Shown here in pieces: positions 6,227-33,948 of a DNA stretch of 64,000 nt (the stretch's first letter is position 1; every line of letters begins with the position of its first letter). The notes beneath the pieces were generated by a model. The model was not told the DNA's origin and ran no database searches. It worked only from the letters and a program-made list of their open reading frames with translations. The position numbers and the translations under genes are program-made. Origin of the DNA: Dehalococcoidia bacterium (GTDB taxonomy: Bacteria > Chloroflexota > Dehalococcoidia > GIF9 > AB-539-J10); contig JAUWOR010000003.1 of the NCBI GenBank assembly GCA_030612025.1, forward strand, positions 32,001 to 96,000. Reading direction: 5' to 3'.

Positions 6227-6403
6227 GAGGCTGTTTAATTTTGCCTCAGATTGAAAACTAGACTTGCCTCATCCAGTTTTAATAACCTTCACCCCATGAT
6301 TCTCGTAATGCGCCCCTTTAGGGTCGTGCACGAGGCTACCCTGTGTAGTAATCTTCGCTACTACACAGGGCTAAAGCCTCGCACTACATTTCTAAACACC
6401 TTC
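6227..6403 (-). mobile_element. MITE-like element with internal GTAG-REP pair (subtype 1)
   Basis: Ends gaggctgtttaa / ctaaacaccttc; near-identical reverse complement of 24131-24309. Confidence 0.8.
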
Positions 6404-22556: not shown

Positions 22557-23054
22557 ATGGAAAGAGAGTTAAGAGTTGGCATTGGCTATGATAGCCACCC
22601 TTTAGCTCCAGGGCGCAAGCTAGTTTTGGGAGGTATTGATATTCCCTATGATAAAGGGTTGCTGGGGTGGAGCGATGCTGACGTGGCAACTCATGCCATA
22701 ATAGACGCTTTATGTGGCGCCGCTGACCTTGGTGATATCGGCACTCAATTTCCCCCCGAGGAGCCAGAACACGAAGGCGTCTCCAGTTTAACTTTACTGA
22801 ATAGAATTCATGAACTAGTTAAAGCAAAAGGCTTCAGCGTAGCTAATATTGACACTACTATTATTGCCCAGCGTCCTAGACTTACACCTTTTATCCCTGA
22901 GATGCGAAAACGCATTAGCCAAGCTTTGGGTATTGAACCACCCCGGGTGACAATCAAGGCCACCACCACCGATGGTTTAGGCTTTATCGGCCGGGAAGAG
23001 GGAATAGCTGCTCAATCTGTAGCTTTAATTCAGAAGGAAAGCTCAGAAAACTAG
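22557..23054 (+). CDS. ispF: MECDP synthase
   Basis: RVGIGYDSH, SDADV, GDIG..FP and KATT motifs; ATG at 22557 preferred. Confidence 0.95.
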   Translation: MERELRVGIGYDSHPLAPGRKLVLGGIDIPYDKGLLGWSDADVATHAIIDALCGAADLGDIGTQFPPEEPEHEGVSSLTLLNRIHELVKAKGFSVANIDTTIIAQRPRLTPFIPEMRKRISQALGIEPPRVTIKATTTDGLGFIGREEGIAAQSVALIQKESSEN

Positions 23055-23323
23055 GTTACCACCATGTCATAACTTGGTTTATTTTCTTTCCAGTAGATTA
23101 CAAATTTAACTGTTTTTCCCTGCATTAAGTGCTTTTCGCTTTCCCGACGGAGTTTTCTAAAATCCATCGATTCCAGAAAGGCCTTAAGAAGCTCGATTCT
23201 CTGTTGTAGTTCTTTATCTTCTTGCTCATCTTCCATAAACTTGTTTACCGAACTCCAGTATTCCTCTTTGGCTACAGTTTCTATGCAATGGGAAAGGCTG
23301 GGGAAAAGCTCTACACAAACCAT
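23051..23323 (-). CDS. Hypothetical protein
   Basis: 90-aa ORF, protein-like composition, upstream GGTGGTGA. Confidence 0.7.
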   Translation of the reverse strand: MVCVELFPSLSHCIETVAKEEYWSSVNKFMEDEQEDKELQQRIELLKAFLESMDFRKLRRESEKHLMQGKTVKFVIYWKENKPSYDMVVT

Positions 23324-23362
23324 ATCCTAATTTGTATCACCACCTGAGAATATTTTCAAAAT

Positions 23363-23414
23363 TTGACAATTTTGAGCCTGGTTGTTAGACTTATTATTGA
23401 CATATGTTCATAAT
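23363..23414 (+). promoter_or_regulatory. Sigma70-type promoter plus palindromic operator of the DUF134 operon
   Basis: TTGACA (23363)-17 bp-TAGACT with a TGn extension, then the imperfect palindrome ATTATTGACATATGTTCATAAT (23393-23414). Confidence 0.7.
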
Positions 23415-23440
23415 TACTAGCGAAAATGAGGTGATTTTCG

Positions 23441-23914
23441 ATGTCTAGACCAGTGAAGTTGCGATATGTTGCTCAGCTACCGAGCACGGGCTTCTTTAGA
23501 CCGATGGGGATTCCTGGGGCTAGTTTACAAGAGGTTCGTCTTTCGCTTGAGGAAGCTGAATCTATCCGCCTCAAGGATTTAGAGGGATTGGAGCAGGAGG
23601 AATGTGCTGAAAGCATGCATATTTCCAGACCGACTTTCCATCGCATACTGGAGTTAGCTCGAAGAAAACTGGCCGATGCCTTAACCAATGGCAAAGCAAT
23701 TCAAATCGAAGGGGGTAACTTTGGATTGCCTCAAAGCCGCTTTAAGTGTAACAACGACGGACACGAATGGAATGTGCCCTTTGAGACTCTAGCGCGCCGG
23801 CTTCCCTTATCTTGCCCGGCGTGCTCCAGCGCGAATATCCAGCCCATGCCTTTACCCCCATTTGGTTGGGGCAGAGGGCGTGGCAGGGGATTTCGCCGTG
23901 GCAGATGGCGCTAA
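23441..23914 (+). CDS. DUF134 (UPF0251) HTH protein with Zn-ribbon-like part and Gly/Arg tail
   Basis: MSRP, EEAESIRLKD, QEECA..M.ISRPTF, ARRKLADAL.GKAI.IEGG; tail GWGRGRGRGFRRGRWR. Confidence 0.9.
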   Translation: MSRPVKLRYVAQLPSTGFFRPMGIPGASLQEVRLSLEEAESIRLKDLEGLEQEECAESMHISRPTFHRILELARRKLADALTNGKAIQIEGGNFGLPQSRFKCNNDGHEWNVPFETLARRLPLSCPACSSANIQPMPLPPFGWGRGRGRGFRRGRWR

Positions 23915-23943
23915 GAAAATAAAAGGAAAGGAGGTGAAAGAAG

Positions 23944-24105
23944 ATGCCATTTGGAAGAGGTTGGTTTGGCTGGGGAGGTGGTTGGGGTAGAGGATTTGGC
24001 AGGGGTTGGCTTGGGTATGGCATGCCCTACGGTTATCCTTATGGAGGATATGGGTCAGGTTACCCCTACTATGGTTACGGTGCAGCACCGCCCTATGGCT
24101 ACTAG
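23944..24105 (+). CDS. 53-aa Gly/Tyr/Trp low-complexity protein (not in ORF track)
   Basis: AAGGAGGTGA SD; MPFGRGWFGWGGGWGRGFGRGWLGYGMPYGYPYGGYGSGYPYYGYGAAPPYGY*; shares GMPYGYPY with its neighbours. Confidence 0.8.
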   Translation: MPFGRGWFGWGGGWGRGFGRGWLGYGMPYGYPYGGYGSGYPYYGYGAAPPYGY

Positions 24106-24130
24106 CCATGGTAAGAGTGTATAGCAAAGT

Positions 24131-24309
24131 GAGGGTGTTTAAAAATGTAGTGCGCGGCTTTAGCCCTGTGTAGTAGCGAAGATTACTACACGGGGTAGCC
24201 TCGGGCACGACCCTAAAGGGTCGCACTACGAGGATCTTGGGGGTGAATGGCTATTAAAACTGGGTGAGGCAAATCTAGTTTTGAATCTGAGGCAAAATTA
24301 AACGGCCTC
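24131..24309 (+). mobile_element. MITE-like element with internal GTAG-REP pair (subtype 1)
   Basis: gagggtgtttaa...ttaaacggcctc terminal inverted repeats; copy of 6227-6403. Confidence 0.8.
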
Positions 24310-24333
24310 AAAGTAGAAAAGAGGTGATTGAGA

Positions 24334-24597
24334 ATGCCGTTTGGAGATGGAACTGGACCAATGGGACTGGGGCCAATGACGGGAAGAGCAGCAGGTTTCT
24401 GCGCTGGCTTTGCTAGATCTGGATTTACCAACCCTATTCCGGGGAGGCGGTTTGGCTTTGGTTGGGGGATGCCTTACGGGTATCCCTATGCTGGCGGGCA
24501 TGGAGGAGCCACTCCTTATATGGGATATGGCTATCCCTACTATGGCAGGGGCTATATTCCGTCCTACGGATACCCTTATGGATACCCACCACGCTGA
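24334..24597 (+). CDS. DUF5320-like Gly/Tyr/Pro-rich protein (no C-terminal coil)
   Basis: MPFGDGTGPMGLGPMTGRAAGFC N-terminal motif; YGYPY repeats. Confidence 0.85.
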   Translation: MPFGDGTGPMGLGPMTGRAAGFCAGFARSGFTNPIPGRRFGFGWGMPYGYPYAGGHGGATPYMGYGYPYYGRGYIPSYGYPYGYPPR

Positions 24598-24644
24598 GCT
24601 AATTAACCTGGAAGAATAAGAAATTTTTTAAAGGAGGTGATAAA

Positions 24645-24842
24645 ATGTGGCCTTGGTTTGGATGGAATCCCTCGGGATATGGAATGCCTTATGGATATCC
24701 CTATGGAGGATATGGTTATGGTTATTCGCCTTGGGGAGCTATGCCTAAGGAAGAAGAGCTAAGAATGCTTGAAGAGCAAGAAAAATGGTTGACAAGCGAA
24801 TTGGACGGAGTGAGGAAGAGGCTGGAGGAGCTTCGCAAATAA
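24645..24842 (+). CDS. Small Gly/Tyr/Trp-rich protein with C-terminal coiled coil
   Basis: AAGGAGGTGA SD; GMPYGYPYGG plus EELRMLEEQEKWLTSELDGVRKRLEEL. Confidence 0.85.
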   Translation: MWPWFGWNPSGYGMPYGYPYGGYGYGYSPWGAMPKEEELRMLEEQEKWLTSELDGVRKRLEELRK

Positions 24843-24890
24843 AGAAAAGGGACTGGTGTATAATATCTAAATTAGGAAAGGAGGTGAACT

Positions 24891-25325
24891 ATGCCAGGAT
24901 TTGATGGAACAGGACCCCGTGGGATGGGTCCAATGACAGGAGGAGGAAGGGGCTTTTGCAGTCCTTGGGGTATAGGGCGAGGATATGGCTTTGGAAGAGG
25001 GTATGGGTTTGGACGAGGATACGGGTTTAGAATGGGGATGCCTTATCCTATGGCTGGTCAATGGTCAGGGGCGCCAGCTCCAGGAGCTTATGGTAGCCCC
25101 GCGGCTATGCCCTATGGATATCCTTATGGAGGTAACCCCTATGCCGGAGGTATGCCATATGGTGGCTACAGTGGAGCACCTATGGGAACAGCATCAGGAG
25201 CAGACCCTTACGCTCCACAGATGACTCGAGAGCAGGAGCTTGATTTCCTGAGAAACCAAGCTGAAGGGATAAAAGGGCAACTGGAGCAAATTGATGCTAG
25301 AATAAAAGAGCTAGAGATAGAGTAA
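24891..25325 (+). CDS. DUF5320-family protein (Gly/Tyr low-complexity region plus coiled coil)
   Basis: MPGFDGTGPRGMGPMTGGGRGFC, (GRGYGF)x3, EQELDFLRNQAEGIKGQLEQIDARIKELE. Confidence 0.9.
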   Translation: MPGFDGTGPRGMGPMTGGGRGFCSPWGIGRGYGFGRGYGFGRGYGFRMGMPYPMAGQWSGAPAPGAYGSPAAMPYGYPYGGNPYAGGMPYGGYSGAPMGTASGADPYAPQMTREQELDFLRNQAEGIKGQLEQIDARIKELEIE

Positions 25326-25343
25326 GCAAAAAGGAGGTGCATC

Positions 25344-25919
25344 GTGAAAATCGCCATTTCAGCGACTGGCCCTAGCTTAGATGCTGAGGTAGACCCTCGC
25401 TTTGGTCGTTGCCAATACTTTATCATTGTTGACCCACAAACCATGCAGTATGAGGCCTTGGAGAATCCTAATATTCAAGCTGCAGGTGGTGCCGGTATTA
25501 GCACAGCTCAGATGATTGCCAACAAAGGAGTGGAAGTAGTTCTTACTGGCAATTGTGGGCCAAATGCTTACCAGACATTATCCGCCGCAGGTCTTCAGGT
25601 GATCAGCGGCGTGGCCGGTAGGATAAGAGACGCTGTTGAAGCCTACAAAGCAGGCAGCCTTCAACCAAGTGCCCAGCCTAGTGTAAGTGCTCACTACGGC
25701 ATGGGAATGGGCATGGGCCGTGGTATGGGTATGGGCAGAGGTATGGGAATGGGCCGTGGCATGGGTATGGGTACGGGGATGACACCTATGGCAGGGCCAG
25801 CACCTCAAGCGATGAGCCCGGAGCAGGAAGTAGAAATGCTTAAAAATCAAGCACAGACGCTAGGACAGCAATTAAGCGAGATCCAGCGCCGCCTTGAGGA
25901 GCTAGGGAAAGGGAAGTAA
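25344..25919 (+). CDS. NifB/NifX-family protein with Gly/Met/Arg repeat and coiled-coil tail (IssA-like architecture)
   Basis: MKIAIS, DPRFGRC, GGAGI and GNCGPNA motifs; (GMGRGM)n; EQEVEMLKNQAQTLGQQLSEIQRRLEEL. Confidence 0.9.
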   Translation: MKIAISATGPSLDAEVDPRFGRCQYFIIVDPQTMQYEALENPNIQAAGGAGISTAQMIANKGVEVVLTGNCGPNAYQTLSAAGLQVISGVAGRIRDAVEAYKAGSLQPSAQPSVSAHYGMGMGMGRGMGMGRGMGMGRGMGMGTGMTPMAGPAPQAMSPEQEVEMLKNQAQTLGQQLSEIQRRLEELGKGK

Positions 25920-25929
25920 GGAGTATACT

Positions 25930-26154
25930 GTGCCCATCTATGAGTATCAATGCACCCAGTGCGGACAAAAATTTGAGGTTCGTCAAGACCTTGGTGAGGG
26001 GGGCTCTAATTTGAACTGTCCTAAATGCCATGCCCCAAATCCTACAAGGCTCTTTTCCTCATTCTTCAGCCCCGGCTCCAGCGCACTCAAGCCTTCAGGA
26101 ATAAGTTGTCCCACTTGCAGCTCTGGAGTCTGCGGACTCCCGCCAATGGAGTAA
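25930..26154 (+). CDS. FmdB-type zinc-ribbon protein
   Basis: MPIYEYQCTQCG..FE, CPKC, C-terminal CPTC..G.C. Confidence 0.88.
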   Translation: MPIYEYQCTQCGQKFEVRQDLGEGGSNLNCPKCHAPNPTRLFSSFFSPGSSALKPSGISCPTCSSGVCGLPPME

Positions 26155-26184
26155 GACAAAAACGATTCTTAGTGGAGGTGATTT

Positions 26185-26415
26185 ATGCCTAGAGGAGATG
26201 GCACAGGTCCTTTTGGTCAAGGAGCGGGAACAGGTAGAGGATTGGGGCGTGGCATGGGCAAAGGGATGGGTAGAATGGGAGGAAGTCGTCCTGGGGCAGG
26301 CCCAAGTGGAAGCTGTCTTTGCCCCAGTTGTGGGACGAGGGTTCCCCACGAGGCAGGCGTTCCCTGCTATAACTTAAGTTGCCCCAAGTGTGGCGCAAAG
26401 ATGATTAGAGAATGA
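26185..26415 (+). CDS. Gly-rich DUF5320-like N-terminus fused to Cys-rich ribbon
   Basis: MPRGDGTGP...GRG.G; CLCPSCG..PH..G.PC...CPKCG..M.R. Confidence 0.85.
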   Translation: MPRGDGTGPFGQGAGTGRGLGRGMGKGMGRMGGSRPGAGPSGSCLCPSCGTRVPHEAGVPCYNLSCPKCGAKMIRE

Positions 26416-27272
26416 TAATTTCTGTTGCCAGTGGCAAAGGCGGCACAGGAAAGACACTGGTGGCTACCAGCTTAGCTCTTTCCCTTAAGGGTAGGAGTAA
26501 GGTGCAGCTACTAGATTGTGATGTAGAGGAACCCAATGTCCATATTTTTCTCCGCTCAACTACGAACCAAAGCCAACCTGTGTTCCTCCCCATCCCCAAA
26601 GTAGATGAGACAAAATGCACCTATTGTGGCAAATGCGCTGAGGTATGCGCCTATAACGCCATTGCGGTAGTCAAGCAAAAGGTACTTGTTTTCCCTGAGC
26701 TATGTCATGGCTGTGGAGCGTGCTCTTATCTATGCCCCGAGTCTGCTATTACCGAAGAAGGGAGAGAAATAGGAGTAGTGGAAACAGGCAGCTTAGGAAA
26801 TATGGAGTTTATTCAAGGGAGACTCACCATTGGCGAACCAATGGCTCCGCCTATAATTAGAGAAGTGAAGAAGCACATTGACCCTACCAAAGAGGTCATC
26901 ATTGATGTCTCTCCAGGAACCTCATGTCCGGTAATAGAAGCAGTTAAGGACAGTGATTTCTGTCTCCTTGTGACTGAGCCCACACCTTTTGGCTTGAATG
27001 ACCTTTCACTGGCAGTGGAAGTAACGAGAAAATTGGGCATTTCATGCGGAGTAGTAATCAATCGTGTTGGGGTTGGGGATGAGAAGGTCGAGAGCTACTG
27101 CTATGAGCAAGGAATACCCGTCTTGCTGAAAATTCCTTTAGATAGAAAAATTGCCACACTCTACTCCAAAGGAATTTGCTTGATAGAGGGGATACCTAGG
27201 TGGCGCAAGGCCTTCCTCAGGCTTTTTCAAGACATCAAAGAAATAGTCACAGCTAGTCAGGTAACGAAATGA
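26412..27272 (+). CDS. MinD-superfamily P-loop ATPase with inserted ferredoxin domain
   Basis: SGKGGTGKT, DCDVEEPN, two CxxCxxCxxxC, VTEPTPFG. Confidence 0.92.
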   Translation: MIISVASGKGGTGKTLVATSLALSLKGRSKVQLLDCDVEEPNVHIFLRSTTNQSQPVFLPIPKVDETKCTYCGKCAEVCAYNAIAVVKQKVLVFPELCHGCGACSYLCPESAITEEGREIGVVETGSLGNMEFIQGRLTIGEPMAPPIIREVKKHIDPTKEVIIDVSPGTSCPVIEAVKDSDFCLLVTEPTPFGLNDLSLAVEVTRKLGISCGVVINRVGVGDEKVESYCYEQGIPVLLKIPLDRKIATLYSKGICLIEGIPRWRKAFLRLFQDIKEIVTASQVTK

Positions 27273-27469
27273 CATGTTGGCAGGAAGTCGCCATAGACGG
27301 TGAAACACTCGTCAAAAGGATAACAGATATGTATGAAGAGCTTGGTTTCGAAGTTCGCCTTGAAGAACTTAAACCAGAGGAAGTGGAGCAATGCACTAAG
27401 TGCTACTAGGAAAGAGGTGAGAGAATTTACCGAGTCTATATACGACGCAAGCGAGAGGATAATAGCTAG
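27269..27469 (+). pseudogene. 66-codon small CxxC protein gene interrupted by an in-frame TAG
   Basis: MTCWQEVAIDGETLVKRITDMYEELGFEVRLEELKPEEVEQCTKCY*ERGERIYRVYIRRKREDNS*; coupled to both neighbours; TAG at 27407. Confidence 0.65.
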
Positions 27470-28327
27470 ATGAAAGAAGTAGTGGTTCTCAGCGGTAAAG
27501 GAGGGACGGGAAAGACAAGTATAGCAGCTTCCTTCGCTGCTTTAGCTCAAAGCAAGGTATTGGTTGATTGTGATGTGGATGCTGCTGACCTTCACCTTCT
27601 CCTCGAGCCACAAATTAAAGAGGAAAACGAGTTCTGGAGCGGGCAAGTTGCCTTTATTGGTAAAGAAAAATGCACTGAATGTGGACTTTGCCAGGAAGTG
27701 TGCCGCTTTGGAGCGATAAAAGATTACGTAGTTGATGAGATTTCCTGTGAAGGTTGTGAGCTATGTTCTCAAATTTGCCCTGTTGATGCTATCACCATGA
27801 GACCTTGCATGGCTGGGCATTGGTTTATTTCTGACACACGCTATGGTGCTCTCGTCCACGCCAGGTTAGGAATTGCTGAGGAAAACTCCGGTAAGTTAGT
27901 GACTTTAGTTCGGAACAATGCTAGACTCATAGCTGAGAAAGGAGAGCTCGATTATATCATCAGCGATGGTCCACCGGGCATTGGCTGTCCAGTCATTGCT
28001 TCTCTATCCGGAGCAAATTTAGCTCTTTTAGTAACCGAGCCAACATTATCAGGAATCCACGACCTTGAACGTGTAATTGGCGTCTGCCGCCACTTCGGCA
28101 TTCCTGCCCTGATTTGCATAAATAAATATGACATTAACGAAGAGAATTCCTGCCGCATTGAAAATTACTGTCATAAAGAAGGGATAGAGGTAGCTTCAAA
28201 GATTCCCTTCGATAATGTAGTAACCGAGGCAATTGTCCGCGGGATGCCCGTAGTGGAATATTCCAAAGGCAAGATTACTCAGGAGATAGGGTCACTATGG
28301 CAGCGCCTCACACGGACACTGAAGTAA
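27470..28327 (+). CDS. Second MinD-superfamily ATPase with inserted ferredoxin domain
   Basis: SGKGGTGKT, DCDVDAADL, two 4Fe-4S motifs, DGPPGIGC. Confidence 0.92.
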   Translation: MKEVVVLSGKGGTGKTSIAASFAALAQSKVLVDCDVDAADLHLLLEPQIKEENEFWSGQVAFIGKEKCTECGLCQEVCRFGAIKDYVVDEISCEGCELCSQICPVDAITMRPCMAGHWFISDTRYGALVHARLGIAEENSGKLVTLVRNNARLIAEKGELDYIISDGPPGIGCPVIASLSGANLALLVTEPTLSGIHDLERVIGVCRHFGIPALICINKYDINEENSCRIENYCHKEGIEVASKIPFDNVVTEAIVRGMPVVEYSKGKITQEIGSLWQRLTRTLK

Positions 28328-28347
28328 CGAAATGTTAAGGAGGTAAA

Positions 28348-29694
28348 ATGAAAAAGTCTGATGTAGTAGTTATTGGAGGCAGCGCTGGGGGAATACCAGC
28401 AGCGATAAGTTGCCGCAGGCGGTACCCAGAAAAGAGCGTGCTTTTAATTCGCAAAGAGGAGCAAGTATTAATCCCCTGTGGCTTGCCGTATATTTTTGGA
28501 ACTGTAGGTAGTCCTGAGAAAAACCTGATTCCTGATGCAATGCTTAAGAACAATGGCATCGAGCTTATTATTGGCGAAGTAGAGGAAATAGATAGGGATA
28601 AGAAGGTGGTTTCCATAGCTGACTGTTTCCCCATCAGCTATGATAAGCTTGTTTTGGCTACTGGTTCCTCGCCTGTGATTTTGCCTCTCCCTGGTGTAGA
28701 CAAGGAGAACGTCTTTTCCGCAATAAAGGATGTTGCCTATTTGAATAACATGTTAGATAAGGTCAATCAAGCTAAGGATATTATAATAATTGGCGGTGGC
28801 TTTATTGGTGTAGAATTCGCTGACGAGTGCAAGAAAAACCGCGATAATAGCGTCACCATTATAGAGATACTCCCCCATTGCTTACAGCTAGCCCTCGATG
28901 AAGAATTCTGCATTGAGGCTGAGAGGGGGCTTGCAGAGAGGGGGATCAAACTTCTCACTAATAAAAGAGTGGAGGCTATCCTTGGTAATAAGCAGGTTAG
29001 CGCTGTCAGATTAGCTGACGGTCAGGAGCGAAAGGCTGACATGGTTATCATGGGGGTAGGGGCAAGACCAAATACCGAATTGGCTGAAAAGGCTGGACTT
29101 CAAATAGGCCCAACGAGAGCCATTGCCGTTGACCGATTTATGCGTACTATTACCGACCCAAATATATTTGCTTGTGGTGACTGCGCTGAAAAATATGCCT
29201 ACCTTAGCGGTAAGCCGAGCCGTATCATGCTTGCCTCTATTGCCGGAGCCGAGGGGCGCATAGTCGGAGCTAATCTCTTTGATACCCGTTATCGCAATTG
29301 TGGTGAAATTGGCGTCTTCTCTACCATTATTGGTGAACAGGCATTTGGCTGTGCTGGTTTAATCGAGGGAATGGCAAGGCAGGAAGGCTACGATGTAGTA
29401 ACTGGCGAAGCAACAGCACCCGATAGACACCCGGGCCTCATGCCAGGAGCGACTTCCACAAAAGTAAAGCTGATATTTTCCAAGGATAATGGCTTACTCC
29501 TTGGTGGTGAAGTCTCAGGTGGCAGGGGTACAGGTGAGTTAACCAATATCATTAGTGCCTGCATTCAGAATGACATGACTGCTTACGAGGTTTCTCTGTT
29601 TCAAATGGGTACCCACCCTGCTCTAACCGCATCGCCAATGGTCTATCAATTGGTGAACGCTGCAGAGCTTGGGGTCAAGGCGATAGCAAAATAA
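28348..29694 (+). CDS. FAD-dependent oxidoreductase, CoA-disulfide reductase/NADH oxidase family
   Basis: VVIGGSAGG, single redox Cys PCGLPY, ATGS, GGGFIG, GDC. Confidence 0.88.
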   Translation: MKKSDVVVIGGSAGGIPAAISCRRRYPEKSVLLIRKEEQVLIPCGLPYIFGTVGSPEKNLIPDAMLKNNGIELIIGEVEEIDRDKKVVSIADCFPISYDKLVLATGSSPVILPLPGVDKENVFSAIKDVAYLNNMLDKVNQAKDIIIIGGGFIGVEFADECKKNRDNSVTIIEILPHCLQLALDEEFCIEAERGLAERGIKLLTNKRVEAILGNKQVSAVRLADGQERKADMVIMGVGARPNTELAEKAGLQIGPTRAIAVDRFMRTITDPNIFACGDCAEKYAYLSGKPSRIMLASIAGAEGRIVGANLFDTRYRNCGEIGVFSTIIGEQAFGCAGLIEGMARQEGYDVVTGEATAPDRHPGLMPGATSTKVKLIFSKDNGLLLGGEVSGGRGTGELTNIISACIQNDMTAYEVSLFQMGTHPALTASPMVYQLVNAAELGVKAIAK

Positions 29695-29716
29695 TACCCA
29701 ATGAAGGAGAAAAGCA

Positions 29717-29956
29717 ATGCCAATTTATGAATATAAATGCTTGGACTGTGGAGAAACCTCAGAAGTATTCCTTCGCAGTCCTGATAGCGAAAGTGTTAAA
29801 TGCCCGGTCTGCGGCAGTAAGAACCTGGAGAGACTTTTGTCAGCTTCCTACGCTATAAGGATGAGTAGCTCTACACCAGGTAGAACTTGCTGCGGCAGAG
29901 CGGAGCGCTGTGAGACGCCTCCTTGCTCCACTGAGGGGGTTTGCCGTAGAGATTAA
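29717..29956 (+). CDS. FmdB-type zinc-ribbon protein
   Basis: MPIYEYKCLDCG, CPVCGS, Cys-rich tail TCCG...C..PPC. Confidence 0.88.
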   Translation: MPIYEYKCLDCGETSEVFLRSPDSESVKCPVCGSKNLERLLSASYAIRMSSSTPGRTCCGRAERCETPPCSTEGVCRRD

Positions 29957-29993
29957 GTGGAGAGTAGCTACAGCGCCAAAGGAGGACAAAAAG

Positions 29994-30332
29994 TTGAGGT
30001 ATGCAGTGCCTATAGTAGATGGCAAAGTGGCTATGCATTTTGGCCATTGCAGCCATTTTGCTTTTTTTGATGTGGATGAGACGAGAAATGTAATTATAAG
30101 AAAGGAGATAGTAGCTTCACCAGGACATGAACCTGGACTCCTTCCCGCCTGGCTTGCCGAGGAAGGAATTTCCGTTGTTATAGCTAGCGGCATGGGCTCC
30201 AGAGCTCAAAGTCTCTTTAGAGAGAACCGCATTGAGGTTGTTATTAATGCCTTGGAAGATGACCCTGAGAAGGCTGTTTGGGATTATATAAAGGGTACAC
30301 TGGCAGTAGGCGAGGATATATGTGACCATTAG
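29994..30332 (+). CDS. NifB/NifX-family protein
   Basis: HFGHC..F, PGH.PG, GMG.RA and C-terminal CDH; TTG start after GGAGG. Confidence 0.88.
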   Translation: MRYAVPIVDGKVAMHFGHCSHFAFFDVDETRNVIIRKEIVASPGHEPGLLPAWLAEEGISVVIASGMGSRAQSLFRENRIEVVINALEDDPEKAVWDYIKGTLAVGEDICDH

Positions 30333-30350
30333 AGTAAAAGGAGGTTATTA

Positions 30351-31358
30351 ATGAGCTTAGAGGCAGAAGAACAGATCCAACACAAGTTGGAACAAGTGCT
30401 TGTCCCTGGAGTGATGCGTAGCTTGGTGCAAATGAACTTGGTGCGAAGCATTGAAGTTAAGGATGGCAAAGCGAAAATCACTCTGGCTTCGACTGCTATA
30501 CCTTCCGAAAGTCATGATTGGCTAAGGGGGAAAGTGGTCACAACGATTCGTGAACTGCCTGAAGTGAACGAGGTCGCTATTGATCTTGTAGAAGCCAAGC
30601 CTAAGGAGCTTAACCAAATTGACCGTATAATAGCGGTGATGAGCGGCAAAGGAGGAGTAGGCAAATCTCTGGTAGCTAGCTTGTTAGCTGCTTCTTTTGC
30701 CCGAGAAGGCAAGGATGTTGGCATACTTGATGCTGACATCACCGGTCCCAGCATTCCTAAAATGTTTGGTTTGAATGTTCGTCCCAGTGGCAGTGAGACA
30801 GGCATTTTACCTATATCATCGAGGTCTGGAATTGAGGTCATGTCTATGAACCTTCTATTGCCCAGCGAAGATGAAGCTGTTATCTGGCGAGGTCCTCTCA
30901 TGTCTAAGGCTATCACACAATTCTGGGAGGAGGTGCTTTGGGGAAAGCTTGACTATCTCGTGATAGACCTGCCACCTGGCACTGGAGACGCCCCATTAAC
31001 AGTAATGCAAACGGTACCGCTCTCCGGGGTAATCGATGTCTTTACTCCTCAGGACTTAACCACAATGATAGTAAGGAAGGCAGTCAAAATGGCGAGGAAA
31101 TTGAATGTTCATGTGCTGGGTGTGATAGAAAACATGAGCTATCTGTTGTTACCGGAAACAGGAAAGAAACTGGAAGTTTTTGGTCGGAGCAAAGGGGAAG
31201 AGATGGCTAAGGCTTCTCAAGCTCCTTTACTGGGAAAGTTGCCCATAGACCCAGAGCTAGCCAGGCTATGTGATCAAGGCGAAATTGAAAGGTATAGTTC
31301 AGATGCCCTATCTGAAATCTTTGCTAGTTTAGTTACTGTTCTGAATGAGAGAAAGTAA
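30351..31358 (+). CDS. Mrp/ApbC/NBP35-family ATPase with N-terminal MIP18/DUF59-like domain
   Basis: SGKGGVGKS, DADITGPS, VIWRGP, DLPPGTGD and ENMS motifs. Confidence 0.92.
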   Translation: MSLEAEEQIQHKLEQVLVPGVMRSLVQMNLVRSIEVKDGKAKITLASTAIPSESHDWLRGKVVTTIRELPEVNEVAIDLVEAKPKELNQIDRIIAVMSGKGGVGKSLVASLLAASFAREGKDVGILDADITGPSIPKMFGLNVRPSGSETGILPISSRSGIEVMSMNLLLPSEDEAVIWRGPLMSKAITQFWEEVLWGKLDYLVIDLPPGTGDAPLTVMQTVPLSGVIDVFTPQDLTTMIVRKAVKMARKLNVHVLGVIENMSYLLLPETGKKLEVFGRSKGEEMAKASQAPLLGKLPIDPELARLCDQGEIERYSSDALSEIFASLVTVLNERK

Positions 31359-31364
31359 TTCACC

Positions 31365-31466
31365 CGTCACCCTGACCCTGAACAAAGTGAAGGGGAAGGG
31401 TCTTGAGATTCTTCGCCGAGCCTGTCCTGAGCGTTGTGAGATTCTTCGCTACGCTCAGAATGACAC
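31365..31466. repeat. Family A REP-like palindromes
   Basis: cgtcaccctga...gtgaagg...gagattcttcg...ctcagaatgaca. Confidence 0.8.
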
Positions 31467-31486
31467 ACAGCAAGAAGAAGCTTTTC

Positions 31487-31619
31487 GAGGGTGTTTAAAA
31501 ACGTAGTTGCCCAATTTATTGGGCGACTGTGCCTGATAAATCAGGCAACTACAAAAATTTGGGGGTGAAACACCTCTGCGATAGCTGAAATTGAACAGGG
31601 AATCAAAATTAAACAGCCT
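31487..31619 (+). mobile_element. MITE-like element with internal GTAG-REP pair (subtype 2)
   Basis: gagggtgtttaaaaacgtagttgcccaatttattgggc...aattaaacagcct; near-identical to the 55191 and 57220 copies. Confidence 0.85.
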
Positions 31620-31643
31620 GGTTTCCCTGAAGGAGGTGAGAAG

Positions 31644-32102
31644 ATGGCACTGGAATTTGATGACTCCTTTAAAGAGCTAGAGGAGTCTGTTATGGAGGAT
31701 ATGCGGAGGATCTACTCCGAGAAGGTGATCGCCAATTTTCTTAACCCAAGAAATTTGGGCCAGATCCAAGCTCCTGATGGATTTGGGAGAGTAACCGGCC
31801 CTTGTGGGGATACCATGGAGATATATCTTAAGACGAAAAATGGTAAGGTTACAAATGCCACCTTCTGGACTGATGGCTGTGGCCCCAGTATTGCCTCTGG
31901 CAGCATGACCACCGAGCTAATTAAGGGAAGGAGCATCGCCGAGGCTCGAAAAATCACCCATGATGATATTCTAAACGCCCTAGGAGGGCTCCCTGAGGAG
32001 AGCCTTCACTGCGCCCTCTTGGCGGCAAACACGCTTAGGGAGGCGATCAAGGACTATTTAGCTTTCAAGAACGAACCCTGGAAAAGAGTTTATAGAAGAT
32101 GA
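31644..32102 (+). CDS. IscU/NifU-N-type Fe-S scaffold protein
   Basis: NPRNLG, GPCGD, GCG..IAS and HCA motifs. Confidence 0.92.
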   Translation: MALEFDDSFKELEESVMEDMRRIYSEKVIANFLNPRNLGQIQAPDGFGRVTGPCGDTMEIYLKTKNGKVTNATFWTDGCGPSIASGSMTTELIKGRSIAEARKITHDDILNALGGLPEESLHCALLAANTLREAIKDYLAFKNEPWKRVYRR

Positions 32103-32213
32103 AGGCCTCGAAGTATGATTCCTGGTTTGAAAATAAGGGAAAAAATTATCTCTCTATTAAATGTTGGTTTTATAAAGAAGGAACCAAAGCCATGAACCCT
32201 AAGGATGTAACCC

Positions 32214-32354
32214 ATGAGCGTAGAAGAGACACTAGCTGAACTTCAAGCTATCTTAGGTAAGGGATTGCATCCCACAGCAATCTCCAAGGTGAGAGAGGTT
32301 CTGACTAAACTTAAAAGGGGACGATACTCAAGGCAACAAACGGCCCAAAAGTGA
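32214..32354 (+). CDS. Possible 46-aa small protein
   Basis: MSVEETLAELQAILGKGLHPTAISKVREVLTKLKRGRYSRQQTAQK*; weak AAGGA SD. Confidence 0.35.
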   Translation: MSVEETLAELQAILGKGLHPTAISKVREVLTKLKRGRYSRQQTAQK

Positions 32355-32397
32355 TGCCCAAAAGAATATGAGAACCTGAGCTAGTAAATAGTGGAAT

Positions 32398-32592
32398 TTA
32401 AGATTTTTTTTGGATTATTACTGAGTGTTCCCTCAAGAAATCAACGCTCTTTAGTCTGCCTTTAATAAATTTCTCTGCTCCAAGCAAGGTGACGAGCAAA
32501 AAACCATCTTTTTCGGCTTTAAGCTCGACTACATCCCGCATTACCTCTTCCCGCTGCCTCCCATCATCAAAGTAGATTGTGGCTATACACAT
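32398..32592 (-). CDS. CooT-family nickel-binding protein
   Basis: N-terminal MC, M.DV, L.G, VDF..H pattern. Confidence 0.8.
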   Translation of the reverse strand: MCIATIYFDDGRQREEVMRDVVELKAEKDGFLLVTLLGAEKFIKGRLKSVDFLREHSVIIQKKS

Positions 32593-32683
32593 ATTTTTAC
32601 CTTGCCCCTTGTCACTGCAAGGTTAATTTTATTCGATACAGCTCCTTCTTTGCAAATTTCATTTGTTAGGCAAATTTTAAATT

Positions 32684-33034
32684 TCATGGCGGGTATAGAG
32701 TTTTAACTTCCTCCTTTACTTTCTTAAGGCTAATCCGCTCTTTCTCGATATCCTCCGGCTTACTTATACCTAAATTTTTCATTTCTTCTAGAACTTTGCT
32801 TGCAACCTCAGTCCGATGAATCCAATTACAGTCTTCGCATGACCAAATTGCACCCCTAATCCATTTGCCTCCTATAGATTCGTCTCCACAAGGATAAAAG
32901 GGACAATAACAGAAAGTACAATCTTCTAAATCATTATGGTGACAGGAAGAATAATACTTGCAACTTTTATCAATTCCCAAAAGCTCACCTTTCTCTAATA
33001 TTTTGTCAAAGTGTCTTTTAGCAAATGATTGCAT
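32684..33034 (-). CDS. Cysteine-rich small domain protein
   Basis: CKYY..CH...CTFCYCPFYPC...WSCEDCNWIH. Confidence 0.8.
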   Translation of the reverse strand: MQSFAKRHFDKILEKGELLGIDKSCKYYSSCHHNDLEDCTFCYCPFYPCGDESIGGKWIRGAIWSCEDCNWIHRTEVASKVLEEMKNLGISKPEDIEKERISLKKVKEEVKTLYPP

Positions 33035-33056
33035 AATTGTTCTCGTTTAGAATTCC

Positions 33057-33428
33057 TTACTCTCCTAACTTTTCGATTCTAGCCAAAATATTGTCAACTC
33101 TCCGGGATAATCCACTCACCTCTTCTTTTAATGATGCTGAAGAGAGAGGTTCCGGTCTTTGAGCCAAAATAGGCTGATAGAATGTATATCTATAGCCAAT
33201 CTCTGGAGCTTTCGCTCCGATGCTTTCACTTATTTTGTAGCCTGCCCAAGGATTCTGCCGGCAGCCAAAAGGCGAGGCTTTCCCTTCTGCCACTGCTCTA
33301 GCGAATTGCCCACAATTACCATACCCACAAAGGCCACAATTAAGCTTAGGCAAAGCTTCATAGATATTCCTTATTATTTTTTCCTTATTAGCGACTGCCA
33401 CCTTTTCATCCCCCTCATTGCAATTCAA
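33057..33428 (-). CDS. Fe-S protein (RnfB N-terminal-like) with C-terminal coiled coil
   Basis: LPKLNCGLCGYGNC...C; tail LKEEVSGLSRRVDNILARIEKL; start uncertain. Confidence 0.82.
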   Translation of the reverse strand: MNCNEGDEKVAVANKEKIIRNIYEALPKLNCGLCGYGNCGQFARAVAEGKASPFGCRQNPWAGYKISESIGAKAPEIGYRYTFYQPILAQRPEPLSSASLKEEVSGLSRRVDNILARIEKLGE

Positions 33429-33948
33429 TTAATAATTGAGATAGCCTTTCATTGGCTTTTTCCATCTCCTGCGCCGCCCGTAATATGCTACTATAAATTG
33501 GATCGGCTTCTGCATTCTTGGCATTCTCCGTCCATTTCCTAAATTTCTCGCTATCTTGTTTGTTATGCTCAATCCAAGAGGTTAAAAGCACTTTAAGCTT
33601 GCCCCTTTCATCAGTGGGGAAATTTTTGACAATACCTTCAACCATTGTCCGGATCGTATGTTCGGGAACTGCACCGAGGATTTCATCAACCTTCTCACCA
33701 CCAGCGAAATACATCTGCATGGGTATGCTCATAATCTGATATTTCGCTGCCGTTTGGGGATTCTCATCCACATTAATCATGCAGAACTTGAATCTGCCAT
33801 CATATTCCTCTGAGAGCTTCTCGTATATAGGTATAACCATCCTGCATGGACCACACCAAGGTGCCCAGAAATCAACCTCTGTGGGAAGGTCTGCTCTTAG
33901 AACCTCCTCGTCAAAATTTCGATCCGTGATGTCTATTATTTTACTCAT
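33415..33948 (-). CDS. Thioredoxin with C-terminal helical extension
   Basis: DFWAPWCGPC, cis-Pro SIP; extra ~65 aa containing WIEHN. Confidence 0.9.
   Translation of the reverse strand: MSKIIDITDRNFDEEVLRADLPTEVDFWAPWCGPCRMVIPIYEKLSEEYDGRFKFCMINVDENPQTAAKYQIMSIPMQMYFAGGEKVDEILGAVPEHTIRTMVEGIVKNFPTDERGKLKVLLTSWIEHNKQDSEKFRKWTENAKNAEADPIYSSILRAAQEMEKANERLSQLLIELQ

Follow-up and report, generated by a model that had tools for sequence, protein, structure and literature searches.

A stretch of 64,000 nucleotides from the genome of a Dehalococcoidia bacterium (assembly GCA_030612025.1, contig JAUWOR010000003.1, positions 32,001 to 96,000; the whole stretch is termed the window) contains at positions 23441-32102 an array of sixteen plus-strand open reading frames (ORFs), named P1-P16. 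Seven of these (P1, P2, P3, P4, P5, P6 and P8) encode low-complexity (LC) proteins, and they are real, conserved genes under purifying selection. The LC proteins combine three modules of DUF5320 (PF17253), a catalogued but uncharacterised family: an N-terminal peptide, a disordered tract and a C-terminal amphipathic helix. The neighbourhood in which they reside is an iron-sulfur (Fe-S) gene cluster of the "orange protein complex" (ORP) type, known from Desulfovibrio. As to their role, the best explanation, which we hold tentatively and with less than even confidence, is that the LC proteins form an IssA-like Fe-S scaffold or buffer, which is served by Mrp, IscU and ATPases.

The host is an anaerobic Dehalococcoidia bacterium of sulfidic sediments with a genome of 1.4 Mb, 95.6% complete. 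Near-identical DNA is found in cold-seep metagenomes at word shares of up to 0.97 (the top one may be the source sample), and metagenomes labelled sediment, hydrothermal vent or subsurface reach word shares of 0.39-0.49. Papers cited below by PMC number were available in part, and statements drawn from them refer to the available parts.

Seven low-complexity genes and their modules

A first-pass annotation of this DNA had reported seven LC proteins in the array, four of them sharing the motif MPYGYPY and none having a signal peptide. All seven ORFs are present on the plus strand and begin where that annotation had placed them:

23441..23914, plus strand: P1, DUF134 helix-turn-helix (HTH) protein, putative regulator (Pfam DUF134, 80.2 bits; sigma-70-region-4-like HTH)
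23944..24105, plus strand: P2, pure LC protein of 53 amino acids with an RG/W half and an MPYGYPY/YG half (no Pfam match)
24334..24597, plus strand: P3, DUF5320 N-motif MPFGDGTGPMGLGPMTGRAAGFC and Gly/Tyr/Pro/Arg LC tract, without the C-terminal helix (Pfam DUF5320, 47.1 bits, profile positions 1-62)
24645..24842, plus strand: P4, uncharged W/Y/G/P LC tract and C-terminal amphipathic helix, without the N-motif (Pfam DUF5320, 31.0 bits, profile positions 42-99)
24891..25325, plus strand: P5, full DUF5320 protein with N-motif and invariant Cys23, an 85-residue LC tract and C-terminal helix (Pfam, 59.1 bits)
25344..25919, plus strand: P6, orange-protein/IssA-type NifX domain, (GMGR)n Met/Gly/Arg disordered tail and DUF5320 C-terminal helix (Pfam Nitro_FeMo-Co, PF02579, 91.1 bits; DUF5320, 49.2 bits)
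26185..26415, plus strand: P8, DUF5320-type N-motif, Gly/Arg tract and C-terminal Cys/His zinc knuckle (Pfam DUF5320, 24.6 bits, below the 27-bit cut-off)

Each of the seven genes carries a Shine-Dalgarno sequence of the GGAGG/GAGGTG type a few bases before its start. Relative to a same-genus genome (G001, about 89-91% DNA identity), the ratio of non-synonymous to synonymous substitution rates (dN/dS) is 0.18 for P1, 0.11 for P2, 0.23 for P3, 0.11 for P4, 0.07 for P5, 0.13 for P6 and 0.12 for P8, the same range as in the neighbouring enzymes (0.07-0.25). Other genera of the family possess orthologues of each paralog type and keep the gene order. The seven LC proteins of the first-pass annotation thus stand, with strong ribosome-binding sites and dN/dS values of 0.07-0.23, and spurious ORFs are ruled out by dN/dS, Shine-Dalgarno sites and orthologues.

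The clustering of LC sequence in the array is far beyond chance. Among the 5,295 six-frame ORFs of at least 50 amino acids in the 1.4-Mb genome, P2, P3, P5 and P4 rank 1, 2, 5 and 10 in Gly plus aromatic content, and the top five in RG/GR density are P5, P1, P8, P6 and P2. P2 consists of 38% Gly and 21% Tyr and harbours no acidic residues; its homologue in G001 contains an extra RG/W repeat block of 23 residues, and hence tract length varies. P1 terminates in a Cys/His knuckle and an RG/W-rich tail, PPFGWGRGRGRGFRRGRWR, with a charge of +7/-0 in the last 21 residues; at least 60% R/G/W/F in the last 22 residues is found in 24/52 DUF134 neighbours of DUF5320. The motif MPYGYPY occurs, as annotated, in exactly four proteins of the set (at residue 27 of P2, 46 of P3, 14 of P4 and 73 of P5). 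Its coding DNA is 73-92% identical among the copies and differs at synonymous sites, and therefore the motif is kept by selection and is no recent copy. In line with the annotated lack of signal peptides, a simple hydropathy test of the first 40 residues reveals no N-terminal hydrophobic segment in any of the seven LC proteins (maximum 12-residue Kyte-Doolittle mean <=0.87).

With a gathering cut-off of 27 bits for DUF5320, P3, P4, P5 and P6 score above it, P8 falls below (N-motif only) and P2 has no match; P2 and P8 are placed with the DUF5320 set by motif and synteny only. The anatomy of the proteins was derived from alignments of 40 P5-type (A3), 40 P6-type and 34 P8-type (A4) sequences. 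The first module is an invariant N-terminal Gly/Pro/Cys peptide, MPxxDGTGPxGxGPxTGxGxGxC, in which M1, P2, G6, G8, P9, G11, G13, T16, G17, G21 and C23 are invariant among the P5-type sequences (Cys23 in 40/40). The second is a disordered tract of 24-101 residues, variable in length and conserved in composition by type, and the third is a C-terminal amphipathic helix with a heptad pattern that is common to P4, P5 and P6 (in P4, 7/9 heptad a/d positions are hydrophobic).

The modules are used in different combinations, and the full three-part build is found in P5 only:

P3: N-peptide and tract
P4: tract and helix
P5: N-peptide, tract and helix
P6: NifX domain, tract and helix
P8: N-peptide, tract and zinc knuckle
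P2: tract only
P1: HTH, Cys/His knuckle and RG tail

The tracts come in three flavours, namely Gly/Tyr/Pro/Arg, Gly/Met/Arg and Gly/Arg. P5-type tracts contain 23% Gly, 17% Pro, 13% Tyr, 12% Ala, 8% Arg, 3% Met, 0.1% Lys and 0.8% Asp plus Glu. P6-type tracts contain 38% Gly, 17% Met, 6.6% Arg, 2.7% aromatic residues and 1.9% Asp plus Glu, and P8-type tracts 47% Gly, 13.5% Arg and 0.3% Asp plus Glu. Across the types, acidic residues thus account for 0.3-1.9%, Arg for 6.6-13.5% and Lys for 0.1-1.0%. Judged by composition, such acid-poor tracts with Arg over Lys are as would be expected for polyanion binding or for condensation driven by Arg and Tyr.

P6 links these modules to a NifX domain. Its tail matches the C-terminal two-thirds of DUF5320, and among solved structures the closest to P6 are the Desulfovibrio gigas orange protein 2WFB (4.5e-22; residues 2-112) and MTH1175 (4.2e-21). 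In the AlphaFold2 (AF2) model of P6, residues 1-110 have a predicted local distance difference test (pLDDT) score of ~98, residues 118-156 fall below 50 and the helix at 159-189 reaches 75-83. The disordered tail is Gly-rich, with a charge of +3/-0. Conserved in P6-type sequences are Cys23 (40/40), Cys71 (34/40) and His117 (38/40), and the Cys23 position is occupied by Ala in the orange protein and MTH1175. All of the best 120 relatives of P6 carry PF02579 together with PF17253. The two NifX-domain genes of the genome both lie in the array.

P8 is characterised by six invariant Cys and one invariant His in the knuckle (A4). AF2 models its residues 1-40, comprising the N-motif region, as disordered (pLDDT 41-51) and residues 41-76 with pLDDT 81-86. 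A Foldseek search of the P8 model against the PDB yielded no match at E <=0.001, the top weak rows being generic rubredoxin/zinc-ribbon knuckles, and the DUF5320 profile found no solved structure at E <0.07. A Dehalococcoidales protein (L051:3188-3814) unites a NifX domain, a GMGR tract and a P8-type Cys/His zinc knuckle in one chain; by its domain content this fusion serves as a "Rosetta stone" that connects P6 with P8. Longer fusion forms of P5 (253-2000 amino acids) were not found, which is weak evidence. Some database proteins of 160-190 amino acids (P0259, P0260, P0269, P0274 and P0286) carry two DUF5320 N-motifs in tandem, the first followed by GYC and a short hydrophobic stretch, the second belonging to a complete DUF5320; these are either true tandem forms or merged gene calls.

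Three further identities of the LC proteins were rejected. Prion-like domains of the Q/N type are ruled out by a Q+N content of about 3.5-5.5% of the tracts. Precursors of ribosomally synthesised and post-translationally modified peptides are ruled out, since maturase genes are lacking and the modules at both termini are conserved and occur fused to NifX. Finally, exported sulfur-globule or structural proteins are ruled out by the lack of a signal peptide and a sulfur globule protein score below the cut-off.

An ORP-type neighbourhood in several anaerobic phyla

The remaining nine genes of the array lie between and downstream of the LC genes:

25930..26154, plus strand: P7, FmdB-family zinc ribbon with a Cys-bearing tail (Zn_ribbon_8, 54.4 bits; TIGR02605, 61 bits)
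26412..27272, plus strand: P9, MinD/CbiA-type deviant Walker-A ATPase with an inserted 2x[4Fe-4S] ferredoxin domain, Orp3/Orp4-like (Pfam/NCBIfam, alignment A6)
27269..27472, plus strand: P10, small CxxC protein between the ATPase genes in an Orp5-like position (46 amino acids, cut by an in-frame TAG at 27407-27409; no Pfam family)
27470..28327, plus strand: P11, second MinD-ferredoxin ATPase, Orp3/Orp4-like (Pfam/NCBIfam, alignment A5)
28348..29694, plus strand: P12, flavoprotein of the CoA-disulfide reductase (CoADR)/persulfide-reductase/NADH-oxidase type with a single-Cys CGLPY motif (Pyr_redox_2, 214.6 bits; PRK09564, 241 bits, below its cut-off of 458)
29717..29956, plus strand: P13, FmdB-family zinc ribbon with a Cys-rich tail (Pfam, NCBIfam)
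29994..30332, plus strand: P14, NifX-type domain corresponding to the C-terminal "Di-Nase" domain of MrpORP (NF041136, 117.9 bits, profile positions 259-365)
30351..31358, plus strand: P15, Mrp/NBP35/ApbC Fe-S carrier ATPase corresponding to the N-terminal domain of MrpORP (ParA/NUBPL, 303.4 bits; NF041136, 321.2 bits, profile positions 1-245)
31644..32102, plus strand: P16, IscU/NifU-N-type Fe-S scaffold (NifU_N, 117.5 bits; TIGR03419, 136.3 bits)

Pfam and NCBIfam confirm the downstream genes of the first-pass annotation (two MinD/CbiA ferredoxin ATPases, a CoADR-like flavoprotein, a second NifX protein, Mrp and IscU), and the two FmdB zinc ribbons and the 46-residue P10 are added to its list. 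P9 and P11 each show a CbiA/ParA match and two Fer4 stretches, the ferredoxin-motif cysteines of which are invariant in A5 and A6. The best solved relatives of P12 are NoxA-3 6PFZ (1e-58) and the CoA-persulfide reductase 8A56 (1.4e-49). P14 starts at a TTG (29994) after AAGGAGG and has relatives of 112 amino acids; it bears the motif MHFGHC, in which the first Cys of CxHFGHCE is replaced, and a terminal CDH. P14 and P15 are separate genes, neither of which reaches the 450-bit cut-off of NF041136. The two FmdB ribbons have Cys-rich C-terminal tails, SCPTCSSGVCG (25930-26154) and TCCGRAERCETPPCSTEGVC (29717-29956), and may be further metal-binding members of the system.

The assignment to the ORP type follows from the correspondence of the MinD-ferredoxin pair to Orp3/Orp4, of P6 to Orp8 and of P14 plus P15 to Orp9 (MrpORP). 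The first-pass annotation had known of no assigned function for the neighbourhood, and thereby overlooked the ORP literature (PMC6345978, PMC8359166). The complex includes a small Fe-S protein, Orp5 (PMC6345978), and the roles proposed for the complex comprise Fe-S maturation by MrpORP, a link to cell division and polar localisation, with expression only at very low redox potential (PMC6345978, PMC8359166). No function has been settled since the founding paper of 2011, as dated in PMC6345978.

In P10, the TAG codon corresponds to CAG (Gln) in the same-genus genome, homologues have 65-84 amino acids, and conservation extends over the 20 codons that follow the stop (ERGERIYRVY...). The stop may reflect a recent nonsense mutation or an error of assembly, or it may be read through. 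Selenocysteine or pyrrolysine at this position is ruled out, as the stop is TAG and the congener has CAG; pyrrolysine machinery was not sought.

The association of DUF5320 with Fe-S genes extends well beyond the window. A scan of one genome per species confirmed at least 404 loci among the 600 pattern matches listed, and the best 80 were analysed; counts from these 80 are lower bounds, as 22/80 loci are shorter than 10 kb. A NifX-domain ORF is present in 64/80 loci, a MinD-ferredoxin ATPase in 54/80 (two or more in 48/80), DUF134 in 51/80, a P8-type ORF in 50/80, Mrp in 42/80, IscU in 38/80, FmdB in 33/80 and a CoADR-like gene in 11/80. At least one of NifX, MinD-ferredoxin ATPase, Mrp and IscU occurs in 69/80 loci. 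Outside the Chloroflexota-labelled records this linkage holds for 25/34 loci, labelled Bipolaricaulota, Omnitrophota, Desulfobacterota, Syntrophorhabdus, Pelotomaculum, Planctomycetota, UBP3 and Zipacnadia. The survey of DUF5320 neighbourhoods that had been suggested with the first-pass annotation thus establishes a link to Fe-S genes across several anaerobic phyla. The same survey speaks against the claim that the expanded paralog set is unusual: two or more small DUF5320 ORFs are found in 34/46 Chloroflexota-labelled loci versus 4/34 others, and therefore paralog expansion is a trait of the clade and not peculiar to this genome. Among 41 relatives (the G000 genome included; these are kin and not independent), a NifX gene is present in 24/24 with DUF5320 above the cut-off and in 9/17 others.

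DUF5320 is a large family, and its profile also has a match in Methanosarcina acetivorans. The P5 query retrieves 2,071 clusters at 90% identity (E <=0.001), and the A3 profile retrieves 7,759 representatives at 50% identity with E <=0.001 and 1,978 with E <=1e-10. Named members are all termed "DUF5320 domain-containing" or hypothetical, clusters of a protein atlas likewise, and no function was found in print. Both the ORP gene neighbourhood and the idea of a NifX domain plus tail (IssA) are already known. In the available parts of the literature we found neither a mention of DUF5320 in the ORP papers, nor a description of DUF5320 as an integral, syntenic and fused part of ORP/IssA-type clusters (papers on ORP from 2011 and on synteny from 2007 may cover some of the small ORFs), nor an account of its modular anatomy and type-specific, acid-free compositions.

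The layout of the array is consistent with a single operon: the genes share one strand, and the gaps range from -4 to 48 bp. The exceptions are two gaps of 228 and 285 bp, both with dispersed repeats. The common strand and short gaps agree with, but do not prove, the one operon of the first-pass annotation. The features outside the coding sequences are:

23363..23391, plus strand: sigma-70-like promoter match, best in the region (TTGACA-17-TAGACT with TG), about 50 bp upstream of P1
24106..24333, no strand: spacer of 228 bp resembling a repetitive extragenic palindromic (REP) element, with a dispersed hairpin repeat
31359..31643, no strand: spacer of 285 bp with a multi-copy repeat (metagenome depth 3,023x in bin 31427-31727)

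The number of sigma-70-like matches in the region is not above that of shuffled sequences, and it is its position that supports the match at 23363..23391. The hairpin at 24165-24195 (27-31 nt) has a second copy in the window at 6339-6369 and 16 copies in the genome; metagenome depth over the 24106-24333 spacer is 343-503x versus ~25x nearby. The repeat element resembles a REP or a miniature inverted-repeat transposable element, and some metagenome contigs join the two spacers. An Rfam scan of 22900-32700 returned nothing credible (the sole row had E 0.71), and nothing for the spacer repeat. In G001 (L099, G001:C13), about 1.7 kb of extra DNA lies between the P14 and P15 homologues (window 30339/30365).

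A contig from a metatranscriptome library matches P5 at 24991-25195 with 0 differences, and a second, 799 nt long and with 28 differences, runs from the end of P6 through P7 and P8 into the start of P9; carry-over of DNA is possible for both, and a covering contig from an RNA library is no proof of a single transcript. Of 30 bins, contigs of the two RNA libraries cover 11 and 3; the greater part of the 9-kb stretch is uncovered, which is no sign of silence.

A convergent minus-strand block (32398-33948) with further metal and redox genes adjoins the array. It encodes a CooT-like nickel chaperone (32398-32592), a Cys-rich small-domain protein (32684-33034), a protein with a PF04060 "FeS" domain (33057-33428) and a thioredoxin with a C-terminal extension (33415-33948).

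Candidate functions of the LC proteins

If the LC proteins form an IssA-like scaffold, the helix-bearing P4, P5 and P6 would assemble jointly with the P6 NifX domain, which is of the orange-protein/IssA type. These proteins and the cationic tracts of P2, P3 and P8 would constitute a multivalent cytoplasmic matrix that retains an anionic inorganic Fe-S species in the way in which the IssA tail is proposed to hold thioferrate. The chemistry of the tail would be spread over several polypeptides, which could be linked via the common helix. The Fe-S species held in this way would be buffered and then passed on to Mrp, IscU and the MinD-ferredoxin ATPases, and transcription may respond to this ligand or assembly via the RG tail of the DUF134 regulator.

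Several lines of evidence favour the scaffold, which the first-pass annotation had proposed as well: the genes are real and linked to Fe-S genes, P6 joins a NifX domain to a tail, the tracts are almost free of acidic residues, and no member of the ferritin/Dps/bacterioferritin family (PF00210) was found in the 95.6%-complete genome, compared with its presence in 14/14 control genomes. A single SufB/D-type gene is present in the genome. Published support comes by analogy from Methanococcus voltae, in which two NifX-type proteins, Mvol_0689 and Mvol_0693, are 2.3-5.0-fold up on pyrite together with Mvol_0691 and Mvol_0692 (PMC8516115). The latter are annotated as cobyrinic acid a,c-diamide synthase, appear on the paper's sheet of FeS-binding proteins and are encoded between the NifX-type pair, and a thioferrate-like electron paramagnetic resonance signal was observed in cells on pyrite (PMC8516115). 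The storage of sulfane sulfur, a further part of the first-pass proposal, is not supported: it rests on the CoADR/persulfide-reductase-like gene, which is present in 11/80 loci only. P12 keeps the cysteine of CGLPY.

Other observations weigh against an IssA-like scaffold. The operational definition of IssA-like proteins requires an isoelectric point (pI) >=9, <5 Cys and >=20% Gly in the last 40 residues (PMC5524996, supplementary Fig. 7 legend). P6 has 2 Cys, but its pI of 6.6 and its 7% Gly in the last 40 residues lie outside these limits, and also outside the looser "IssX" limits (pI >=8, >=10% Gly); on this point the first-pass proposal is not supported. None of the 40 P6-type tails reaches 10% aromatic residues, and a tail so rich in Met and poor in aromatic residues is not explained by a purely electrostatic model. 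The tract of P4 is uncharged. Cys23, Cys71 and His117 of P6 and the single Cys of the N-motif point to a specific ligation or partner rather than a generic matrix. Seven relatives at least 94% complete are without both DUF5320 above the cut-off and NifX, and therefore the cassette is accessory. Moreover, the roles proposed in the ORP literature (complex maturation, cell division, polar localisation and low-redox expression) differ from that of an Fe-S store. A condensate, a particle and the binding of Fe or S are all inferred.

The conserved Cys and His residues would be more readily accommodated if the proteins served the ORP complex as transient carriers of Fe-S clusters or as maturation factors and operated without a storage body, the LC tracts being flexible linkers. 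We consider this possible, although on the whole unlikely. In such a scheme the N-motif Cys would ligate bridging clusters, either joined via the C-terminal helices or paired with Cys23, Cys71 and His117 of P6, with the clusters moving back and forth between IscU/Mrp and the MinD-ferredoxin ATPases. The invariance of Cys23 in P5-type sequences, the conserved triad of P6-type sequences (with Ala at Cys23 in the orange protein and MTH1175), the six invariant Cys and one invariant His of P8-type sequences and the presence of Mrp and IscU in the same array all agree with it. [quoted passage not shown] However, linkers need neither type-specific compositions across phyla nor a near-exclusion of Asp, Glu and Lys; P2 and P4 are devoid of any Cys, and 4-6 paralogs are odd for a simple carrier.

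Gene order draws attention to the ATPases themselves. Downstream of P8-type genes the next match is a MinD-ferredoxin or Mrp ATPase gene in 45/51 cases (within 20 bp in 33/45), and in the window the stop of P8 overlaps the start of P9 by 4 bp. The LC proteins might accordingly be partners or adaptors of MinD/ParA-type ATPases, akin to McdB, MinE or ParB, that position a cargo in the cell, an idea to which we give a low probability. The N-peptide would dock on the ATP-bound dimer of P9/P11 (or Mrp) and tune its ATPase activity, and the tract and helix would tether the cargo. The N-motif of P8 is disordered in isolation, as expected of a docking peptide. McdB is itself disordered with a coiled-coil and phase-separates, and judged by composition a McdB-like phase separation of the LC proteins is plausible. 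Many ParA/MinD ATPases bind their partner at its N-terminal region (PMC11407121), and the role fits the cell-division and polar-localisation observations for ORP, MrpORP being polar (PMC6345978). On the other hand, the ATPase-stimulating Lys/Arg is not mapped, some contigs have DUF5320 beside NifX genes without ATPase genes, and ATPases with ferredoxin inserts resemble Fe-S carriers and NifH-like proteins as much as positioning ATPases. A complex prediction for P9, P11 and P8 scored 0.00 and gives no verdict either way.

Scaffold and partner might also be combined. We regard it as distinctly improbable that DUF5320 proteins are the building and tethering proteins of an unrecognised membraneless organelle of anaerobes, arranged around an inorganic iron-sulfur polymer and positioned by MinD/ParA-type ferredoxin-ATPases. 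Its Arg/Tyr/Met-rich subunits would condense with the NifX protein, and the N-peptide would be an ATPase-docking motif comparable to that in McdB-McdA and carboxysomes.

Soft metals offer a different view of P6. Its domain could hold a Mo-Cu-sulfide cluster and its Met/Arg tail could bind Cu(I) and the anion, in which case the proteins would bind or detoxify thiometallates or soft metals (Mo/W-Cu-S, Cu(I)) instead of Fe-S; we judge this very unlikely. Met-rich tracts are known Cu(I) ligands; P6-type tails contain 17% Met on average (at least 15% in 27/40), and the P6 tail matches a Met-rich stretch of a multicopper oxidase (6TTD/6SYY, E 2e-4), which is a compositional match. We know of no settled physiological role for the Mo-Cu cluster of orange proteins, which counts against this assignment. 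The D. gigas orange protein is the best solved relative of P6, and its homologues carry a non-covalent [S2MoS2CuS2MoS2] cluster (PMC6345978). Yet the other genes of the array are Fe-S machinery (IscU, Mrp and ferredoxin-type ATPases), the Cys/His residues conserved in P6-type proteins are a gain absent from the orange protein, and the Met-rich tract is confined to P6.

That the LC proteins are small RNA- or DNA-binding or regulatory proteins of the RGG/YG type, which act together with the DUF134 regulator, is highly improbable. Nucleic acids are bound by RG/RGG and Tyr-rich tracts of eukaryotic proteins, P1 pairs an HTH with an RG tail and RG-rich tails recur in 24/52 DUF134 neighbours, but P2-P8 contain no nucleic-acid-binding domain (Pfam), the modules are fused to NifX and a zinc knuckle, and the synteny across phyla is with Fe-S genes.

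Whichever role applies, ORP/IssA-type clusters of Dehalococcoidia, Bipolaricaulota, Omnitrophota, Desulfobacterota, Pelotomaculum, Planctomycetota and other groups include a large unstudied family as an integral and syntenic component. The storage and traffic of iron and sulfide in strict anaerobes are poorly understood, and to our knowledge IssA is the only Fe-S storage protein described. The locus yields concrete parts, namely a docking-like single-Cys N-peptide, type-specific acid-free tracts and a common helix. If the tracts bind Fe-S polymers or condense, they would represent functional low-complexity scaffolding in bacteria that is tied to metal homeostasis. If the LC proteins are ATPase partners, the MinD-like half of the ORP system would be explained, and if they build an organelle, a function would be at hand for the ORP complex and for ~7,800 DUF5320 sequence clusters.

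Comparison with known systems

The closest published model for the scaffold is IssA of Pyrococcus furiosus, which PMC8351635 gives as UniProt Q8TZG9. According to the proposal for IssA, its NifX-type domain nucleates anionic thioferrate, the disordered Gly/aromatic/cationic tail wraps around the thioferrate, and oligomers form in a mineral-dependent manner (PMC5524996). MTH1175, one of the best solved relatives of P6, is the protein used to model IssA (PMC5524996). P6 likewise possesses an IPR003731/NifX-type domain followed by a disordered, Gly-rich and Arg-bearing tail, and the tracts of P2, P3 and P5 share the Gly/aromatic/Pro/cationic make-up reported for the IssA tail (PMC5524996). The window proteins are also cytoplasmic and stem from an anaerobe of sulfidic habitats. 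In contrast to IssA, the P6 tail is composed of Met, Gly and Arg, is nearly devoid of aromatic residues and has an amphipathic helix at its end, the P6 domain has conserved Cys/His, and the tail-like sequence of the window lies mostly in separate small proteins with their own N-motif. P6 departs from IssA in two of the three operational properties (including its pI of 6.6), a comparison made with the published description and not with the IssA sequence.

With the ORP complex of Desulfovibrio the window shares a pair of MinD-like ATPases that each bear two [4Fe-4S] motifs, a small CxxC protein encoded between this pair, a NifX protein resembling the orange protein, Mrp and Di-Nase modules matching NF041136, and an anaerobe-specific distribution. 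In the window, however, MrpORP is split into two genes in reversed order, and the NifX protein carries a tail. The regulator is DUF134 rather than the sigma-54 activator OrpR, no gene for which is found in or beside the array; OrpR is restricted to delta-proteobacteria according to the ORP literature (PMC8359166/PMC6345978). Furthermore, the array adds the DUF5320 paralogs, FmdB ribbons, a CoADR-like enzyme and IscU.

More distant parallels concern the LC sequence itself and its genetic context. Sulfur globule proteins (PF17228) are Gly/Tyr-rich, repetitive small proteins of a sulfur-containing inclusion as well, and those of purple sulfur bacteria are exported. The LC proteins of the window lack a signal peptide, P4 attains 17.8 bits compared with a cut-off of 26.7 bits, and the others have no match. 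FUS-type RGG/Tyr domains of eukaryotes, which form condensates, follow a grammar of stickers and spacers, and the window tracts resemble them in combining Arg and Tyr "stickers" with Gly "spacers", Arg in large excess over Lys and a near-absence of acidic residues. Unlike those domains, the tracts are bacterial, short (24-101 amino acids) and not rich in Q, N or S, and they are joined to a Cys-bearing peptide, a helix, a NifX domain or a zinc knuckle. Finally, as in McdB-McdA and other ParA/MinD pairs (PMC11407121, PMC10554743), the gene for a small disordered/helical candidate partner adjoins that for a deviant Walker-A ATPase; the window proteins lack sequence similarity to McdB, and the ATPases bear ferredoxin inserts.

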